Notes under the pieces: generated by a model
Told to the model about the DNA's origin: nothing
The model's input: only the letters and a program-made list of their open reading frames with translations
Database searches by the model: none
In this document: in pieces, positions 7,140 through 63,709 of the stretch
Layout: every line of letters begins with the position of its first letter
How positions within the stretch are numbered: position 1 is the stretch's first letter
DNA from: Octopus vulgaris
Lineage: Eukaryota
Direction of reading: 5' to 3'
NCBI GenBank assembly: GCA_951406725.2
Contig: OX597825.1
Location: forward strand, 15,686,001 to 15,750,000
Length of the DNA: 64,000 nt
Program-made: the position numbers and the translations under genes

Positions 7140-7448
7140 TCAAATATATACATATTTAATGAGTAAATATTCAAAAGTAAATTAATATCTGCGCTAATTA
7201 TAAATTGATAATTACAACAATAATATAGGTGGCTGCAGGCGTTAAATAGTATTAGATAGCTATAGATTTAAAATTCATATTTATCCTAAGGGCACACGAA
7301 GCACCTACCTGCTAGAAAGTGGAGTTAAAACCCTCAAATTAAACACCAATAACACTGAAAAATTCAACAGATAACAACACTAGAGCAAGACAAAATTTAG
7401 AACGCCAGCAGACTCCAGCGTGACGTGTTCAATTTTTCACTTGATAAC

Positions 7449-7503
7449 ATTTGCTGAAGAGAGTTGTGGGTTTTTCGCCCAAACTTGAAATTGCGATACA
7501 AGT
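7449..7503 (+). ncRNA. Type I hammerhead ribozyme, copy 1
   Basis: atttg-CTGAAGA-gagttgtggg...cccaaactt-GAAA-ttgcga-TA-caagt; predicted cleavage after 7498. Confidence 0.75.
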
Positions 7504-7933
7504 ATATCCAAAATTCCAAACTATATGGCATTAAGCTGTGATGGTATGTCAAAATTTATTTTTGCTCCTTTGCCCGACTATGTTGTTATCTGTTGAATTT
7601 TTCAGTGTCATTGGTGGTTAAGTTGAGTGTTTTAACTCCACTTTCTAGCAGATAGGTGCTCCGTGTTCCCTTATAATAAATATAAATTTTAATTGTATAG
7701 CTATCTAACGCTATTTAACGCCTGCAGCCTTCTAAGTTATTGTTGTTGTTATTATCAGTTTACATTTACTGCTGATAGTAATAACAATAACAATATCTCC
7801 ATAAATATTCGCTTTTGAATATTTACTCCTTATTATAAATATGTGTACACTGAAGTTGTTGTGAATTTGGCGCGAAACAACTCAGAACGCCAGCAGACTC
7901 CAACGTGAAAATCTAAATTTTTCCCTTGGTAAG

Positions 7934-7987
7934 ACTTGCTGAAGAGAGTTAAGGTTTTCCGCCCAAACTCGAAATCATGATACAAAT
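7934..7987 (+). ncRNA. Type I hammerhead ribozyme, copy 2
   Basis: acttg-CTGAAGA-GAGTT...AACTC-GAAA-TCATGA-TA-caaat; palindromic stem III ATCATGAT; predicted cleavage after 7982. Confidence 0.82.
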
Positions 7988-8661
7988 ATATCCAAAATAC
8001 CAACCTATATAGAATTAAGCTGTGATGATATGTCAAATCTTTTTTTTCTCGTTTGCCCGAGTACTGTTGTTATCGGTTGAAATTTTCAGTGTCGTTGGTG
8101 GTTGAGTCTTTTAACTCCACATTCTAGCAGATAGGCGATTCGTGTGCCTTTATCATAAATATATGCACATATACACACATGCATATATATATATATATCT
8201 TTTATTAAAATTTTAATACTTTTGATATATATTTAAAATAATATAAATTAATTAATCTTATGTATTGGCTTAAGTTTTTCATTGTTTGATTTGCCTAATA
8301 GTGGTTTTATCTCTAATTTAATATAACATATATATATATATATATATATATGACTGAATTCCTTCAGTTTCTAAGATACTTGTTGTACTCGTTACCGATT
8401 ATCCATTCTACACTCGTAACCATTTTATCATTCCAGAATAAAAGTATATTTAGGAAATTGATTGCAACTGAACGGGTCTGTCTCTTTAATATGGCCTAAA
8501 TTCATTTGTTACCTCTCGTTACCGTATTGGCTACAATTATTGACTGCATGTCGTTGATTATAATAGCTACGATCTCTTCCGCCAGCCATTCAGCTACGTC
8601 TCATATGTATGATATTTCTAAATATACACCTTCTGCACAGTCAGGTCTCATCAAAGCTGCA

Positions 8662-44578: not shown

Positions 44579-44939
44579 AATTGAGTAGTTGAATGAATTA
44601 TCTTATTATAGAGAATTCGGTTAACCGATACCTGGGTAGCAAATTCACGTCAGAAAAACACGGTTGAAGCTACATGCCTAGGGCAGAGATCCCGTGCTAT
44701 CGTGTGGAAATTTGTGCGTTTCTTTAAATACAAATAAATGAAAGAATGGAGTTGAACGACGAATTAACAAAATTCCTTTATTTTCGACATATGTTTCGAA
44801 GGCTGCATATTCCTAATTTCAAAGGAATAAGCGGTGCATTATGTCGCCTTCTCATCAGGAAAAACAAGGAACTTATGTCAGCATCAAGATGCACAAAAAC
44901 TTTTAGATGACTGTCCACACGGAGCCCATAGCGATAATA
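44576..44939 (-). mobile_element. ~360-bp HHR-bearing island inserted in (TA)n
   Basis: Unique sequence between two TA tracts, containing a canonical HHR followed by AATAAA. Confidence 0.75.
44781..44863 (-). ncRNA. Canonical type I hammerhead ribozyme
   Basis: TTTTC-CTGATGA-GAAGGC...GCCTTC-GAAAC-ATAT-GTC-GAAAA; all core nucleotides present, 5-bp stem I, extended stem II, palindromic stem III ACATATGT, GUC site. Confidence 0.92.
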
Positions 44940-50286: not shown

Positions 50287-51029
50287 CTATAGTAAATACA
50301 TATATATATATATATATATATACATATATATTGTAAATACATATATATATGTCTATGTATGTATATATATATATATATATATATGGAGGCGTTACGTATA
50401 TGTGTATGTATACATGTATATACCTTCCCCAAACGCCCTCATGCCCTCTTCACACCTACAATATCATCACTTTGCATTTATGCATACATCTTACGCATCT
50501 ATTCTCTAACACACTACTCTCCTACACTTGTACATCTCTAAACATACCCACATGCACCCACCCAAGATGCACCCGTATCTCATTCTACTACACACATCTC
50601 CTCTATGTATATCGCTATACATGGATCCCCTCCTATACATGCACAAACCATCCCACCTCGTTCTTTCTTCTTAACTTTTCCCCATAGAACCATATACCCA
50701 CCCGGCCCCTTTCTGTGTTTCATTCTATCTCTTTCTTCCTACTAACTTTCTGTCTATTCTATTTTCCGTTCTTTCTTTTTTAACCTTCTCATGATGAAAG
50801 ACTAATGTCGGAAACGTCAAATACTTTTTCTTTTCGTTTAAAGTGTTAGACTAATAATACCTTTACTGAAACTTGTCCTCATTTTTCTTCATTTTTTTTG
50901 CTCATTACCAAACATATATACTTTATTATTGCTTGCCGACGGTTTTTCGAAATCAGTGACGGAAGTTACTAGGAAAACACTTAAGTATTTGCATACAGGT
51001 CTTCCTTTTCATCGTAAACCGGTGATTAC

Positions 51030-51074
51030 CGCCCGTTGACAAGAGGCAACTACCTCGAAACTGCGGTCCATGCG
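51030..51074 (+). ncRNA. Type I hammerhead, U3-A8 core variant
   Basis: cgcccg-TTGACAA-GAGG-caacta-CCTC-GAAAC-tgcg-GTC-catgcg; stem I has two mismatches. Confidence 0.72.
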
Positions 51075-51287
51075 TATCACTTAGGCTTACGAGAGAGGGA
51101 TGACCTCCCTTTGCAAATACCATAAGGGCACAGATAGTGTGCCTAAAGCCAGCTGGAGACGATGACCTCCTGGGGCTAAAAGCTACAGTAACACCCACCC
51201 TTTGTGGTTAGCCATATTGAGATGGCTATTATACTTTACGTTGTCGAGCGGTTACTGTTTACATCTCGTTCAGAGATTTATTATTGC

Positions 51288-51322
<35 letters not shown>

Positions 51323-51328
<6 letters not shown>

Positions 51329-51775
51329 TTTATCGCCTTTTGACTATGTTTACGTATTTCTCGATAAATTTTGACCGTTAGACCCTATACCAGAACCCCT
51401 CTGTTTGTCGGGTATGTTCTGCGTCTGCGCAATGATCTGAAAAGTTAGAGAAAGTAAATCAGTAGAGTCGCACATGTTTCTATTGATATGTACTTCTAGA
51501 ATAACAGGTTGCTTACTGAAGAATCTGACCTGAGAAGATAAATTATATTTAATGCTGAAAAAGACGAAACTGCAGTATAAGATGAACCGAGTTTGTAAAC
51601 GTTTTTAATTTTCATTTCACTGAATTTATCCAACTTTTGTGTATCTAGTACTCACTTCTTCTTTTAGAAGCCTTTTAATGTACTTATATATGAATAACAT
51701 ATAGCCTATGGCTAAAATGTCTTTTGTGCTAGATCACCGGCGATAATAATTTATTTTATCGCCTTTCGACTATGT

Positions 51776-51776
<1 letters not shown>
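51323..51776 (+). mobile_element. 426-bp HHR monomer with 28-bp terminal redundancy, in (TA)n
   Basis: atttattttatcgccttt(t/c)gactatgtt at 51323-51350 and 51749-51776; central HHR. Confidence 0.8.
51512..51581 (+). ncRNA. Type I hammerhead ribozyme
   Basis: CTTA-CTGAAGA-aTCT...AGAC-GAAAC-TGCA-GTA-TAAG; palindromic ACTGCAGT; A-C mismatch at 10.1/11.1. Confidence 0.8.
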
Positions 51777-51867
<91 letters not shown>

Positions 51868-52005
51868 AAAAAGTTGAGTTGTGGGGTATCGCACGAGTGG
51901 GATTATATAAGAAAAAAGGTTTGAAAATGCAATTTAAACGATGTTTATTTACTTAACCGGTTTCACTCTTTGGTAAAAGATTGTCAAAAGTTACATTTAA
52001 GGAAA

Positions 52006-52233
52006 CATTGAATAATATGGGTTCAAAAAAAGTTTTTTACATAATTGTCACATTGAATATTATGCATTCAAAAAAGTTTTTTACATAATTGTCACATTGG
52101 ATATTATGGGTTCAAAAAAGTTTTTTACATAATTGTCACATTGGATATTATGAATTCAAAAATGTTTTTTACATAATTGTCACATTGGATATTATGAATT
52201 CAAAAATGTTTTTTTATACATAATTGTCACATT
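52006..52233. repeat. 44-bp minisatellite, about 5 units (mirrored at ~53082-53308)
   Basis: acataattgtcac recurs at 52039, 52083, 52127, 52171 and 52218. Confidence 0.95.
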
Positions 52234-52650
52234 ATTTGGGAAAATTTGGCAGAAAAAGGATAAAACAAATATATTATTGGGAATTGGTTGCGTTAATTAT
52301 TGGTTGTCGCAAATTGTCACATTACATGTATATATATACAATCTTTGGTATATATATACAGCGTTTTGACAGCAAAAATTAAAATGGCTTTTTTGTACAT
52401 CTCAGAATATTTTAAGTATGTTTTTACTGACCTGTCAGTATTAGCAGAAAGGCTGAACTGAGAGAACAGAAGAAGTAGCCAATGTGGTGTATACTTCCCC
52501 TTTATGCATGAATGATTTTGGGGTTATCAGGAGGTTAGTATGCAGGTGTGAATAGATGTGTCCGTGCCTGCTGGTCAGACAGCATCTGTTTGTCACACAC
52601 ATATATATACACACAAACACACACACACACAACAACACACACACACACAC

Positions 52651-52703
<53 letters not shown>

Positions 52704-53322
52704 TGTGTATATATATGTGTGTGACAAACAGATGCTGTCTGACCAGCAGGCACGGACACATCTATTCACACCTGTATACTAACCTCCTGATAACCCCAAA
52801 ATCATTCATGCATAAAGGGGAAGTATACACCACATTGGCTACTTCTTCTGTTCTCTCAGTTCAGCCTTTCTGCTAATACTGACAGGTCAGTAAAAACATA
52901 CTTAAAATATTCTGAGATGTACAAAAAAGCCATTTTAATTTTTGCTGTCAAAACGCTGTATATATATACCAAAGATTGTATATATATACATGTAATGTGA
53001 CAATTTGCGACAACCAATAATTAACGCAACCAATTCCCAATAATATATTTGTTTTATCCTTTTCTGCCAAATTTTCCCAAATAATGTGACAATTATGTAT
53101 AAAAACATTTTTGAATTCATAATATCCAATGTGACAATTATGTAAAAAACATTTTTGAATTCATAATATCCAATGTGACAATTATGTAAAAAACTTTTTT
53201 TGAACCCATAATATCCAATGTGACAATTATGTAAAAAAACTTTTTGAATGCATAATATTCAATGTGACAATTATGTAAAAAACTTTTTTGAACCCATATT
53301 ATTCAATGTTTCCTTAAATGTA

Positions 53323-53363
53323 ACTTTTGACAATCTTTTACCAAAGAGTGAAACCGGTTAAGT
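53323..53363 (+). ncRNA. Hammerhead-like motif with U3-A8 core (mirror copy at 51951-51991, minus)
   Basis: ACTT-TTGACAA-TCTTT-tacc-AAAGA-gt-GAAA-CCGG-TT-AAGT-AAATAAA; two extra nucleotides before GAAA. Confidence 0.62.
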
Positions 53364-53402
53364 AAATAAACATCGTTTAAATTGCATTTTCAAACCTTTT
53401 TC

Positions 53403-53439
<37 letters not shown>

Positions 53440-53585: not shown

Positions 53586-53775
53586 GGCGCAGGAGTGGCT
53601 GTGTGGTAAGTAGCTTGCTTACCAACCACATGGTTCCAGGTTCCGTTCCACTGCGTGGGGAAGTGTCTTCTTCTATAGCCTCGGGGCAACCAAAACCTTG
53701 TGAGTTGATTTGGTAGACGGAAACTGAAAGAAGACCGTCGTATATGTGTGTGTGTGTATCTATATAGGTATGTGT
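53586..53775 (+). mobile_element. SINE family B, 5' half
   Basis: ggcgcaggagtggctgtgtgg... ending at the internal microsatellite. Confidence 0.88.
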
Positions 53776-54333: not shown

Positions 54334-54968
54334 CAGGATGCGTTGCGTAAAGTGTCGCCAATTTTTATTTTTAATTTCGCGCACGTGCGTTGTTTGTTTT
54401 TGATTTTTGTCGACTACACAATATAGTAGGGTCGGTTGAGCATCGTTTGTGAGAAACGCAACACCATGGCGCAATTCATTCTGACAGAAATTCGGAAACA
54501 TGCTTTAGTGCTTGGGTGTTAATCTGAGGACAGTACAGCAGATTCGGAAAGAGTTGGATAAGTCTAATGACGATTACAAAAGTACGGCAACTCGGAAAAC
54601 TCACTCTGATTGTTCTCATAAGAAAAGAACTCCTGAATTTGTTGTAAGATCCAAGCTCTGATTGACAACGATCCCTCCAAATCAAGCAAGTTCATCTCCA
54701 GGGACGTGCGGGTGTCTGAGTTTCTTATCAGGCAAGGAGTGCATGAAGACATTCGTTATTCCTTAATTGAGATAAGAAAGGGCCAGTTTTTTATTCCAAG
54801 CCATCAAGGACAAGAGCAAAGACCGCGCGACGAAGCTTTTGAAGAAACTCATGCTTCCCCTCCAACTGAACATGCTTGGTTTTTCTCAAACGAGAAAAAT
54901 GTCTGCCAGGATCATAGTGTAAACACACAGAACAACTGTTGGCTTGTTGTATCCCCGAAATATGTACC
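54334..54968 (+). mobile_element. Tc1/mariner (maT/DD37D-like) transposon 5' remnant
   Basis: TA|CAGG terminus; frameshifted translation CLGVNLRTVQQIRKEL...KKRTPEFV..IQALIDNDPSKS...VSEFLIRQGVHEDIRY...WFFSNEKNVCQD...NTQNNCWL; truncated by a SINE array. Confidence 0.85.
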
Positions 54969-55759
54969 AAGTGCGTAACTGGTACTTATTTAATCGACCC
55001 CGAATGGATGAAAGGCAAAGTCGACCTCGACGGAATTTGAACTCAGAACATAGCAGAGAGACGAAATACCGCTAAGCAATTCGTCCGGCGTACTAAAATT
55101 TCTGCCAGCTCGCCGCCTTTAGCGGAATTTTAACTCAGAACGTAACGGCAGACGAAATACCTATTTATTTACTACCCACAAGGGACTAAACACAGAGGGG
55201 ACAAACAAGGACAGACAAACGGATTACGTCGATTACATTGTCCCCAGTGCGTAACTGGTACTTAATTTATCGACCCCGAAAGGACGAAAGGCAAAGTCGA
55301 CCTCGGCGGAATTTGAACTCAGAACGCAACGACAGACTCAATACCTATTTCTTTATTACCCACAAGGGGCTAAACACAGAGGGGACAAACAAGGACAGAC
55401 ATAGGTATTAAGTCGATTACATCGACCCCAGTGCGTAACTGGTACTTAATTTATCGACCCCGAAAGGATGAAAGGCAAAGTCGACCTCGGCGGAATTTGA
55501 ACTCACAACGTAACGCAGACGAAATACCTATTTCTTTACTACCCACAAGGGGCTAAACACAGAGGGGACAAACAATGACAGACATAGGTATTAAGTCGAT
55601 TACATCGACCCCAGTGCGTAACTGGTACTTAATTTATCGACCCCGAAAGGATGAAAGGCAAAGTCGACCTCGGTGGAATTTGAACTCAGAACGTAGCGGC
55701 AGACGAAATACTGCTAAGCATTTTGCCCAGCGTGCTAACGTTTCTGCCAGCTCGCCGCC
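54969..55759 (-). mobile_element. SINE family A tandem array
   Basis: Head at 55759, then units of 183-184 bp (junctions ~55527, 55344, 55160); a further head-bearing partial copy at 54969-55118. Confidence 0.93.
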
Positions 55760-56269
55760 TTACTCTGCAGAAAATAATGAAAATAAAATGTTACTAATTG
55801 TAGATTTAAAACTTGACGGTACAGGTTTCGAATCTCTGTAGCAGCTGCTATCCATTTCCTGTTGTTTTTTCTTTCTTTCTTTTTTGTCAAAGCGGTTAGT
55901 TTTACCCGATTTTCTAACGCTATTTTCACTGCTATTCCCTTGCGTTCGAGATTTTCTTAATTTCTAAATAGCTTTTTTATTATTAGATTGCATAAAGATG
56001 ATGAGCAGGAAGAATCGTTAGCACGCCGAGCAAAACACTTAGCGGCGATTCGTCCGTCTTTACGTTCTGAGTTCAAATTCCGCCGAGGTCAACTTTGCCT
56101 TTCATCCCTCGGAGATCGATAAAAAAATGAACCAGTTGAATACCAGGGTTGATGTAATCGATGTACCCCCTCCTCCGAAATTTTTAACTTTATGCCAAAG
56201 TTTGTAATTAGTATTAGGTTGTATAATTACGACACTGTTGTTGCAGCACACAAACCAGCAAACATTAAT

Positions 56270-59889: not shown

Positions 59890-60301
59890 TATTTCTTTAT
59901 TGCCCACAAGGGGTTAAACATAGAGGGGTCAAACAAGGACAAAGGGATTAAGTCGATTACATCGACCCCAGTGAATAACTGGTACTTTATTTAACGACCC
60001 CGAAAGGTTGAAAGGCAAAGTCGACCTCGGCGAAATTTGCACTCAGAACGTAGCGGCAGACGAAATACCTATTCCTTTACTACCCACAAGGGGCTAAACA
60101 CAGAGAGGACAAACAAGGACAGATAAACGGATGAAGTCGATTATATCGACCCCAGTGCGTAACCGGTACTTATTTAATCGACCCCGAAAAGATGAAAGGC
60201 AAAGTCGACCTCGGCGGAATTTGAACTTAGAACGTAACGGCAGACGAAATACTGCTAAGCATTTCGCCCGGCGTGCTAACGTTTCTGCCAGCTAGCTCGC
60301 C
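59890..60301 (-). mobile_element. SINE family A dimer
   Basis: Junction at ~60068. Confidence 0.92.
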
Positions 60302-61481
60302 TTGTTCTGAAACTCTTCTGATTCAGCCAGTCACTGTCCATGAGAGACCATAAGAGCCACTTGATCCGCTAGAAAGGGTAGGCAGATCTTCATTCAATTA
60401 CAGCCTATTGTTTAAATAAAGAGGACACATAGGTAATTGCGTTCTCGGAGCACCAACTCTGGTAAAAAGACGTGATGATCACGCATGGAATAATATCTTC
60501 GATTATGGTCGATCTGGGACAGAACAGCGAGAAACACTGTCCATATGGAGACGAAGCAAGGAAAAGAGAACAATGAAAAATTACTTTTAAACCTCTGGAA
60601 ACTGAATATTTTCTCAGCATATTCCGTAAATATATTTGAAGAGGAAAAGACGTGGCTTAGGTAATGTTCACCTAGATTGATGAGAACTCACCTATCATAT
60701 TTGGCCTCGGATGTTTTTATGTCAGAATGATAAATGTATCCATAAAATAAATGACATTTTACGCTGTCTATACATAATTCTTCAACTGTATATTCACTAA
60801 ACTGACATGCATACAGACATACACACTGAAATGCACATTTACACAGACATACACATAAACGTATAGACAGTGGGCCGGGAATGTTACCGCCATTCCCTGA
60901 TGTACCGGCATTAACTGTGATGCTATATCGGGGATAAAACTATAACCTTAACATTTTCACATGTCACCAAGAGCATCTGGGTGACCTGAAGCATTGTCCA
61001 AAATCTAAAAAAAAAAGCATTAATCTAGATTTATAGACTTACTATATTCTTCGCTCTCGAAACAGAAGCTATTCTTGAACTAATCTTTAAATAAAGATTT
61101 TGTAACACAAGTTTTTGTATTAGATTTCCGATAATCTAGTAAGCAATACTGGCTGCACCTTTTAATAGTTTGTTGGTTTTCTGAAAGATATAACACAGGC
61201 ATTTGTTGCAAATCATTATCAGTATATCTATCCAATAAAATTCTTCGACAATTGATCGTTAACCACTTTGACCCTGGTTACGCTTTTCCTTTCTTCGCTA
61301 AATAAGGACATCAATTTCCAAAACAATGTCGTTTCGTTCGTGGTTATATTCTGGCCATTAACAAAATCTCCACTGTGAATATATTATTTTACTTCAGCCT
61401 GACATCCACACTTTCTTCTATAAATCTAACCTAGTGGATTCTAGACCGTTTTCCTGTCAAACAATATATTGTGTTGTGACC

Positions 61482-61680: not shown

Positions 61681-62136
61681 TATTACATTTGAAGGTTATG
61701 TGTTTATTTCCAGATTGTTTTAAACAGAATCTATCCAAATGAATTACAAATAGTTGCCACATTGTAGTTATGCGATGTGAGCTCGATTTTTGTAAGGGGT
61801 TTATGGTAGAAGTACTGCAGTTTTGCGTGATTTTAAAACCTTACGTCAGCGTTGTTTCTTAGTATAACATCGCCTGATAGTACACTTTCCACATTGTACA
61901 AAGGATGAAGCGCTCGCGGTGGCGTTGGAGAAACTCCAGTCTATTGTTTTCAATCAAGGTTAGTCATACTTTTTATTTGCTTTCATTTTCATTTTTCTTC
62001 TGTAATTGTTCTCTGAAATATCTCAAACAAGTCTCATTATTTTGCTTCGTATGGAGGGAAGTTTCAAAGCAGTTGGCCATAGTTATCCTCTTTTTCTTTG
62101 ATTTTCAAAGAGATATTTTCACAGATGATCTCTATG

Positions 62137-62915
62137 ACGAGCTGGTAGACACGTTAGCACGCCGGGCGAAATGCTTAGCGCTATTTCGTCTGCCGCTACG
62201 TTCTGAGTTCAAATTCCGCCGAGGTCGACTTTGCCTTTCATCCTTTCGGGGTCGATTAAATAAGTACCAGTTACGCACTGGAGTCGATATAATCGACTTC
62301 ATCCGTTTGTCAGTCCTTGTTTGTCCTCTCTGTGTTTAGCCCCTTGTGGGTAGTAAAGAAATAGGTACACACTTTTCTTATGAGCGGCGGGCTAGCAGAA
62401 TCGTTAGCACGCCCGGCGAAATGGTTAGCGATATTTCATCAGCAGTTAAGCTCTGAGTTCAAATTGCGCTGAGGTCGATTTGACTTTCATCCTTTAAAGC
62501 AGCGAGCTGTCAGAAACGTTAGCACGCCGGGCGAAATGCGTAGCCGTATTTCGTCTGCCGCTACGTTCTGAGCTCAAATTTCGCCGAGGTCGACTTTGCC
62601 TTTCGTCCTTTCGGGGTCGATTAAATAAGTACCAGTTACGCACTGGGGTCGATATAATCGACTTCATCCGTTTGTCTGTCCTTGTTTGTCCTCTCTGTGT
62701 TTAGCCCCTTGTGGGTAGTAAAGAAATAGGTATTTCGTCTGCCGCTACGTTCTGAGTTCAAATTCCGCCGAGGTCGACTTTGCCTTTCATTCTTTCGGGG
62801 TCGATTAAATAAGTACCAGTTACGCACTGGGGTCGATGTAATCGACTTAATCCGTGTTTCTGTCCTTGTTTGTCTCCTCTGTGTTTAGCCCCTTGTGTGT
62901 AGTAAAGAAATAGGT
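62137..62915 (+). mobile_element. SINE family A cluster (monomer, partial copy, dimer)
   Basis: 62137-62366, 62384-62495 and 62499-62915, the last with a 184-bp unit. Confidence 0.92.
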
Positions 62916-63709
62916 CCATACTTTTCTTATCTGTCCCAAACAAAAGATATATGACTTAATAAGTTTGCACTTTTACAAAGTTTTTATTAGAATGTGTGTC
63001 TGTGTGTCTGTGTGTCTGTGTGTGTGTGTGTGTGCAAGTGTATCTATATATGTTTGTATGTATTTATGTATGTATGTATTCATGTGCACGTGTGTATGTA
63101 TGTGTGTGCGTAAATTTGTATTCCAGGTTATCACCCTCTCCGTGTTGGAAGCAGAAAAACTACAAGGAAATGGGAATTTACATTTCGCAATATGTGTAGT
63201 TTTCACAGGTTAATCTATTATTGAAGAACATTTATCTTGATAATATGAAACACAATGAAGATGAGAGCAAAACATCCCTTATTATTGCTGGAGGATATAT
63301 TTCTTATTAACTATTTATTACTTTGCAATATTTATGTATCCAAATATCATCACTCGAAATAATTGTTTTTCACCTCTTCATTTCGCTAGATAGAGATTGA
63401 ATTTTAGAAGATCAGGAATTTTATTAGAATACTGAAATTCTGGCAGTAAACGTTTCAATAGTAAATTGCTTTAAAGATGACAAAATTACCAACAATGATA
63501 AATATGATGCAGACCAACAGAGTTAATGCAGATATACCTGATAAACCATTCCTTTCGTTGTTATCATCATTAACACCTGGACATGTCTGTCTCGAATCTG
63601 GGGAATCATAAAACTGATTACCCAGTTTCCATGGTATGAGGAAACAAAATCACATTTCTCGCCTGTTCGTCGCAAGTTTACTCGTTACCAGCTGAGTTGA
63701 CTGGAACTA

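Follow-up and report, generated by a model that had tools for sequence, protein, structure and literature searches.

Features of the locus

The region studied lies in a window of 64 kb (the whole stretch of DNA analysed), whose GC content per 2 kb ranges from 26 to 42% and in which microsatellites and interspersed repeats are abundant; this AT-rich window looks like non-coding animal DNA. The 187 open segments of at least 55 amino acids across the window gave five Pfam matches, all under the curated cut-offs, and no match to a RT or GIY-YIG domain. A SINE-like repeat at about 53586-53740 is of a type that we take to be reminiscent of octopus genomes. A 184-bp unit recurs in the window, both dispersed and in several short tandem arrays (including 54963-56183, 59890-60309 and 62134-62930), and neither the descriptor nor the covariance model described below found a hammerhead in it.

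At 50922-51288 the window contains a retrozyme-like element, whose components are listed in Table 1. The preliminary description had placed a structured island at 50935-51290; depth, joints and the terminal repeat shift both limits. The 355-bp unit has a GC content of 45.6% and no coding capacity was found in it, its two overlapping open segments being without Pfam match. No second copy occurs elsewhere in the 64 kb, and the Rfam matches near the element are microsatellite hairpins under threshold. In addition to the microsatellite on the 3' side, a short TA-like tract is present 5' of 50922, and the TA-rich flanks are likely the insertion target.

Table 1. Coordinates of the element, its hammerhead motif and associated features (positions in the window)
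Feature	Position	Strand	Remarks
One 355-bp unit of high-copy head-to-tail repeat, retrozyme-like monomer	50922..51276	+	depth, joints, loose ends
12-nt terminal redundancy, identical to 50922-50933	51277..51288	+	start of next unit
(TA)16 microsatellite directly 3' of the element	51292..51323	.	
Canonical type I hammerhead motif, U3-A8 core	51021..51082	+	descriptor, covariance model, family variants
UAC bulge of hammerhead	51027-51029	+	
Helix I of hammerhead	51030-51035/51069-51074	+	
Core TTGACAA, U3 to A9	51036-51042	+	
Helix II, perfect, 4 bp	51043-51046/51053-51056	+	G10.1-C11.1; 6-nt loop 2 ending in A
GAAA	51057-51060	+	
Predicted cut site, GUC	after C17 (51068)	+	2-bp helix III with tetraloop
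U1.7 of hammerhead	51075	+	
Long rod (extended helix I), about 50 pairs, hammerhead at tip	50978..51129	+	predicted; pair probability at least 0.85 at 11 of 13 sampled positions
Hairpin (second of the preliminary description)	51126..51144	+	inner-pair probabilities 0.96-1.0
Hairpin (third of the preliminary description)	51209..51228	+	inner-pair probabilities 0.96-1.0
Imperfect U3-A8 hammerhead-like motif	53321..53365	+	mirrored at about 51949-51993, minus strand
Inverted repeat, arms 51904-52620 and 52697-53409, 98.7% identical	51904..53409	.	CA/TG microsatellite at centre

A high-copy head-to-tail family

The stretch carrying the element was present in 20 of the 24 public runs listed (10 studies, 4 organism labels); no RNA-recorded run was among the listed carriers, and runs guessed to be RNA were given no weight as a sign of expression. 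Family depth and variants were obtained from the contigs of four public runs (X1, X2, X8 and X9) over the region 50700-51288, at 80% likeness. Depth is about 3-90 in the flank and, from 50920 on, between 1e3 and 2.5e6 in the element (X1, X2 and X8), values which we do not accept as a measure of copy number. A joint leading from 51276 back to 50922, i.e. 355 bp back, was found in two of the four runs (two contigs in X8, one in X9), and in three of them (X2, X8 and X9) the loose ends upstream of 50922 correspond to the 3' end of the unit. Together these joints and matching loose ends define a family with a 355-bp head-to-tail unit; no contig among the pieces listed spans a whole unit, and circular and tandem DNA look alike in contigs. 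Family contigs carry the 12-nt repeat between the end of one unit and the start of the next. As it lies inside the family junction, we rejected it as a target-site duplication.

The 3' half of the unit is covered 10 to 100 times more deeply than the 5' half, which fits truncated insertions of the type produced by Penelope-like elements (PLE) and a shared 3' module equally well. At 51178, 51239 and 51253 many contigs diverge from the element into loose ends that they share, and depth reaches its peak at 51200-51219. Another abundant family or subfamily may have the module at 51178-51253 in common with it.

The insertion starts 146 nt upstream of the predicted cut site, contains the ribozyme uncut and extends 12 nt beyond one turn. 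A linear copy of a doubly cut monomer would start at 51069, so that the observed start suggests that the template was a circle or a multimer, or that an array was copied at the DNA level. In the low-depth flank, 100 bp to the left of the element, a degenerate minimal hammerhead-like relic with an altered position 3 is visible at 50790-50820.

The hammerhead motif

The preliminary description had noticed a TTGACAA core with a perfect stem II and a GUC site, and all three were borne out at the positions given in Table 1. The heptamer by itself carries no information, as it occurs 17 times in the window compared to 11.7 times per shuffle. The motif as a whole is of another order: at 51036 we found the full set of core positions (Y3 U4 G5 A6 N7 R8 A9, G12 A13 A14, A15.1-U16.1 and H17), four of the six pairs of helix I, U1.7, the UAC bulge and a 5-bp closing stem. 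Helix III is palindromic; in this copy its predicted 8-bp self-duplex includes two wobbles and has an energy of -9.7 kcal/mol. A strict type I descriptor retained three sites in the window (7454, 7939 and 51036) versus 0.19 per shuffled window, and its U3-A8 form gave 0.06 matches per shuffled window (150 shuffles in each case).

To these counts we added a covariance model built from an alignment of 22 hand-picked C3-G8 metagenome hammerheads unrelated to the element. They came from a scan covering 5 of 64 parts of a metagenome collection, in which 123 loci were found and 122 examined. The model gave 51021-51082 a score of 40.6 bits (E of roughly 1e-10), the next best site of the window reaching 12.7 bits, although it leans towards this motif, the scan pattern having fixed a loop 2 like that at 51036. 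The UAC bulge, the 6-bp register of helix I, U1.7 and the closing stem lie outside the scan pattern and are nevertheless common to the motif and the metagenome hammerheads. The hammerhead motif at 51021-51082 is thus real; cleavage is predicted from its sequence.

Rfam gave no match above the gathering threshold in the window, and none at 51036 even with E up to 10. Family-specific patterns had no match in the viral, metagenome and genome collections searched. The broad patterns matched viral contigs by chance alone: of 32 matches not one combined the two stems, and none of the 26 examined (of 27) passed. No sequence relative was present among the metagenome loci, the sole BLAST match being of 36 nt with an E of 0.03.

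Identity of positions 3 and 8

The core of the motif carries U3 and A8 in place of C3 and G8. Positions 3 and 8 were said in the preliminary description to form a Watson-Crick pair, so that the double change would be compensatory. The pair and the compensatory nature of U3-A8 are established by two papers (PMC3088659, PMC4209133) and by the rescue of C3G by G8C in a third (PMC11167929); the reading proposed for the 51036 core is plausible and already published.

A8 accounts for 96.5% of depth in X1, 97.3% in X2, 86.8% in X8 and 64.9% in X9, with G8 making up 3.5% (one contig), 2.7% (five), 13% (three) and 35% (two), respectively. With A8 predominant in the family contigs, these shares argue against decay of the 50922-51288 copy alone. 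U3 is probably the majority state too, since no position-3 variant appears among the 40 of 88 variant rows listed; depths give no linkage between positions 3 and 8. If the rows are ranked by share, as we infer, at least one of the two G8 contigs of X9 does not carry C3, which would point to U3.G8 copies without linkage. In X1, X2 and X8 the core is covered at 19-48% of the depth reached 25 nt downstream, and the contigs covering the core may represent a subfamily near the 50922-51288 copy.

The double change can come from decay, given that C7-G8 is a CpG and that a decayed copy in a member of an unrelated C3-G8 family (L124:279-340, minus strand) carries TTGACAA, hence U3-A8, with a broken helix II. 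Decayed copies of other unrelated C3-G8 families show single changes, C3-A8 in L116 and U3-G8 in L149. Among the 122 metagenome hammerheads examined, 28 passed a loose structural filter; 27 of them are C3-G8, one is C3-A8, and none is U3-A8 or U3-G8. The U3-A8 pair is therefore uncommon in canonical motifs of this shape, and single changes are rare in intact motifs. All the other hammerhead-like motifs of the window with a clear core are C3-G8 (7454, 7939, 44858 on the minus strand, and 51516). In the master copy of the family U3-A8 likely took the place of C3-G8, and it was likely retained for preserving the 3-8 pair.

We also considered a probably cephalopod retrozyme family of thousands of copies that holds both core states and produces rod-like circular RNA in abundance, in which A8 would be edited from A to I and this change from U3-A8 to U3.I8 would tune self-cleavage. 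The five A>G rows listed are all highest in the run guessed to be RNA, with 35% at position 8 versus 3-13% elsewhere. A different mix of subfamilies explains this excess as well, and rows other than A>G are raised in the same run too; we regard the editing scenario as very improbable.

Predicted folding and family variants

The description of the region as highly structured was confirmed: the linear fold has a z-score of -4.8, and 50922-51276 folded as a circle reaches -118.4 kcal/mol with 63% of positions paired and a z-score of -6.4, none of 100 shuffles equalling the real sequence in either case. The circle of the minus strand is weaker than that of the plus strand (-102.7 kcal/mol). Two of the three serial hairpins previously proposed were recovered (Table 1). 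The remaining one, at 51096-51110, had a probability of 0.0 at the six pairs checked (of six) and was rejected as a hairpin; it is the 3' strand of the long rod. Fifteen variants in the rod arms were checked: three create new pairs, six keep pairing, four break a pair and two are neutral. One of the four pair-breaking variants would be mended if 51000 C co-occurs with 51103 G.

The predicted fold of 51021-51082 is not the active one, a misfold of -17.7 kcal/mol being favoured versus -9.0 kcal/mol for the hammerhead-like structure, with a helix III probability of about 1e-5. Private changes of this copy favour the misfold and likely weaken or inactivate the ribozyme. Given this predicted misfold and a solo unit lacking a tandem partner, we consider the ribozyme of 50922-51288 likely weak or dead.

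The family letters draw a different picture. Position 51070 is G in 91-100% of family depth, which restores pair 2.2-1.2; 51065 is A in 86-96%, which makes helix III a perfect palindrome suited to dimer formation; and 51033 is A in 14-56%, which restores pair 2.3-1.3. Position 51050 is A in 47-77%. Within the element, the 32 rows listed place variation at N7, position 8, loop 2, loop 3 and helix I, and none at U4, G5, A6, A9, G12 to A15.1, U16.1, C17 or helix II; as these belong to the 40 of 88 rows listed, the invariance of the core is limited evidence.

Other hammerhead-like elements in the window

According to the preliminary description the TTGACAA core recurred in an unrelated element at 53327/51981, from which selection for catalysis in at least two families had been proposed. 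The core is indeed present there, in a motif whose helix I measures 4 bp, whose helix II has a U.U mismatch at its base and whose helix III is palindromic (self-duplex of -10.1 kcal/mol); position 17 is U. The copies at 53327 and 51987-51981 are located one on each arm of a single inverted repeat and were rejected as two observations. Selection in two or more families is not established, its basis being one imperfect motif duplicated by inversion. The motif at 53327 is excluded by the strict descriptor because of the U.U at the base of stem II, and the covariance model gave no match there at E up to 2. A relaxed descriptor recovers it, with 0.22 U3-A8 matches per shuffled window; adding the palindrome, a condition introduced post hoc, lowers this to 0.03. 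One hammerhead of an axolotl retrozyme cleaves despite such a U.U in helix II (PMC7229834), and the 53327 motif may by analogy be real. The repeat that carries it, a near-perfect 1.5-kb foldback with a 44-bp minisatellite in each arm, may have arisen by inverted insertion as in PLEs or by local fold-back duplication, or may be an artefact of the assembly.

Directly 3' of the 355-bp element, at 51323-51776, lies another monomer-like element, bounded by (TA)16 and (TA)42, whose 426-bp unit has a terminal repeat of 28 nt. Its C3-G8 motif at 51516 combines a helix I of 4 bp with a long loop 2 and is mismatched at 10.1-11.1, and its palindromic helix III is identical to the family majority of the 355-bp element. 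The circular fold of the 426-bp unit is weak (z-score of -1.5), as is its match to the Rfam family RAGATH-1-hammerhead (E of 2.9). Further away, 7181-8163 holds a partial tandem of 485 bp in which two type I hammerheads with C3-G8 occur (7454 and 7939), with a circular-fold z-score of -3.6 and an inverted segment (7181-7379 versus 7581-7782); it is PLE pLTR-like or retrozyme-like. A last hammerhead-like motif was found on the minus strand at 44783-44861, with C3-G8, a long helix II, a palindromic helix III and a score of 12.7 bits.

In total, three or four hammerhead-bearing elements are located within 2.6 kb at 50790-53409, and their clustering around TA microsatellites suggests an insertion hot spot.

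Nature and spread of the element

The features collected above are those of a retrozyme: a head-to-tail unit within 150-450 bp, one type I hammerhead, no coding capacity, GC below 50% and a predicted circle that is largely self-paired. We therefore consider it probable that 50922-51288 was inserted as a solo unit and belongs to a non-LTR retrozyme family with a U3-A8 type I hammerhead. By analogy with the retrozymes of coral, mussel and axolotl, tandem 355-bp copies would be transcribed, adjacent hammerheads would pair through the palindromic helix III and cut after C17 to release 355-nt monomers, and a host ligase would circularise these into rod-like circles. A circle or a multimer would then be reverse-transcribed at a TA-rich site by the RT and endonuclease of a Penelope-like element or, alternatively, by a non-LTR RT. 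Such copying would account for the start 146 nt upstream of the cut site, the uncut ribozyme and the 12-nt overshoot.

The unit could instead be a pseudo-LTR (pLTR), solo or in partial tandem, of a Penelope-like element or of a non-autonomous derivative, moving as linear multimeric RNA. The insertion adjoins (TA)n, three strand-switch joints (each in a single contig) and one go-back joint from 51285 to 51007 were found, and depth is strongly biased to the 3' side; PLEs are known for tandem and inverted structures and for a microsatellite bias. Retrozymes have moreover been proposed to derive from pLTRs, so that the two readings grade together. Nevertheless the 355-bp joint runs directly from end to start without an intervening ORF, the hammerhead has the canonical loop-loop form of retrozymes and not the minimal form of most metazoan PLEs, and the 187 open segments of the window are all free of RT and GIY-YIG matches. 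We judge a pLTR origin unlikely.

A further explanation accepts that the hammerhead was once functional and takes U3 and A8 as two unlinked transitions that hitch-hiked with a successful master copy, spread being independent of cleavage. The CpG at C7-G8, the single changes in L116 and L149, the double change in the broken L124, and the persistence of G8 (3-35% of depth) where the listed rows, 40 of 88, include no C3 all go in this direction. Cleavage was also dispensable for insertion of an anole PLE in vitro, which HHR mutants did not block. What speaks against it is the pattern of variation: among the rows listed the loops and N7 vary, but helix II and the core positions other than 3, 7 and 8 do not, and the majority letters of the family preserve both helix I and the palindrome. 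Moreover, single changes are rare in intact motifs, the 28 filter-passing metagenome hammerheads including no U3-G8 and one C3-A8. We find hitch-hiking quite unlikely.

Finally, a chance match in a structured DNA satellite or foldback repeat, to which the missing Rfam match and the inactive predicted fold of this copy could be ascribed, is largely refuted and hardly credible in view of the rarity of strict U3-A8 matches in shuffled windows, the E of about 1e-10 with an independent model, the ribozyme pairs restored by family variants, and a plus-strand fold of -118 versus -103 kcal/mol on the minus strand.

Comparison with known systems

Metazoan retrozymes are described in coral, in Mytilus galloprovincialis (350-390 bp) and in axolotl (330/350 bp), and their features and cycle are set out in the same source (Cervera and De la Pena 2020, PMC7229834). 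Retrozyme monomers are common, and retrozymes are treated as PLE derivatives in recent work including the same preprint (bioRxiv 2026.07.22.740005). For PLEs themselves, internal initiation by the RT and AT-rich or TA-microsatellite targets are documented. The 355-bp family resembles metazoan non-LTR retrozymes in its length class, GC content, head-to-tail organization and solo monomers, and also in its single type I hammerhead per unit with a 2-bp helix III and tetraloop. It differs from them in its apparently predominant U3-A8 core, in its strong 3' depth bias and in having no sequence relative in the viral, metagenome and genome collections searched.

Earlier work describes U3-A8 in two settings. 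Natural variants with in vitro activity cited are scattered (Perreault et al. 2011, PMC3088659); they share the change from C3-G8 to U3-A8, whereas here most of a high-copy family apparently carries it. Cercyon PLEs of Schistosoma mansoni have U3-A8 minimal hammerheads with about 1,300 matches (Cervera and De la Pena 2014, PMC4209133). They share with the 355-bp element the swap in an animal retroelement, the type I topology and a dimer-type helix III. However, Cercyon hammerheads are minimal (long helix II, short helix I, no helix III) and reside in the pLTRs of RT-coding elements, whereas the 355-bp unit is non-coding and its motif is of the canonical loop-loop kind. For the giant squid, 235 Rfam hammerhead matches are reported (PMC6962438). 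A search of openly readable papers returned no published account of the 355-bp family or of a cephalopod retrozyme.

Neither the U3-A8 swap, in print since 2011, nor the class of element is new. The family itself is probably a new retrozyme family, likely cephalopod, in which U3-A8 appears dominant at high copy number within a canonical hammerhead. Descriptor screens requiring C3-G8, and Rfam screens, would overlook it. With thousands of copies and residual G8, this family could reveal the path from C3-G8 through U3.G8 to U3-A8.
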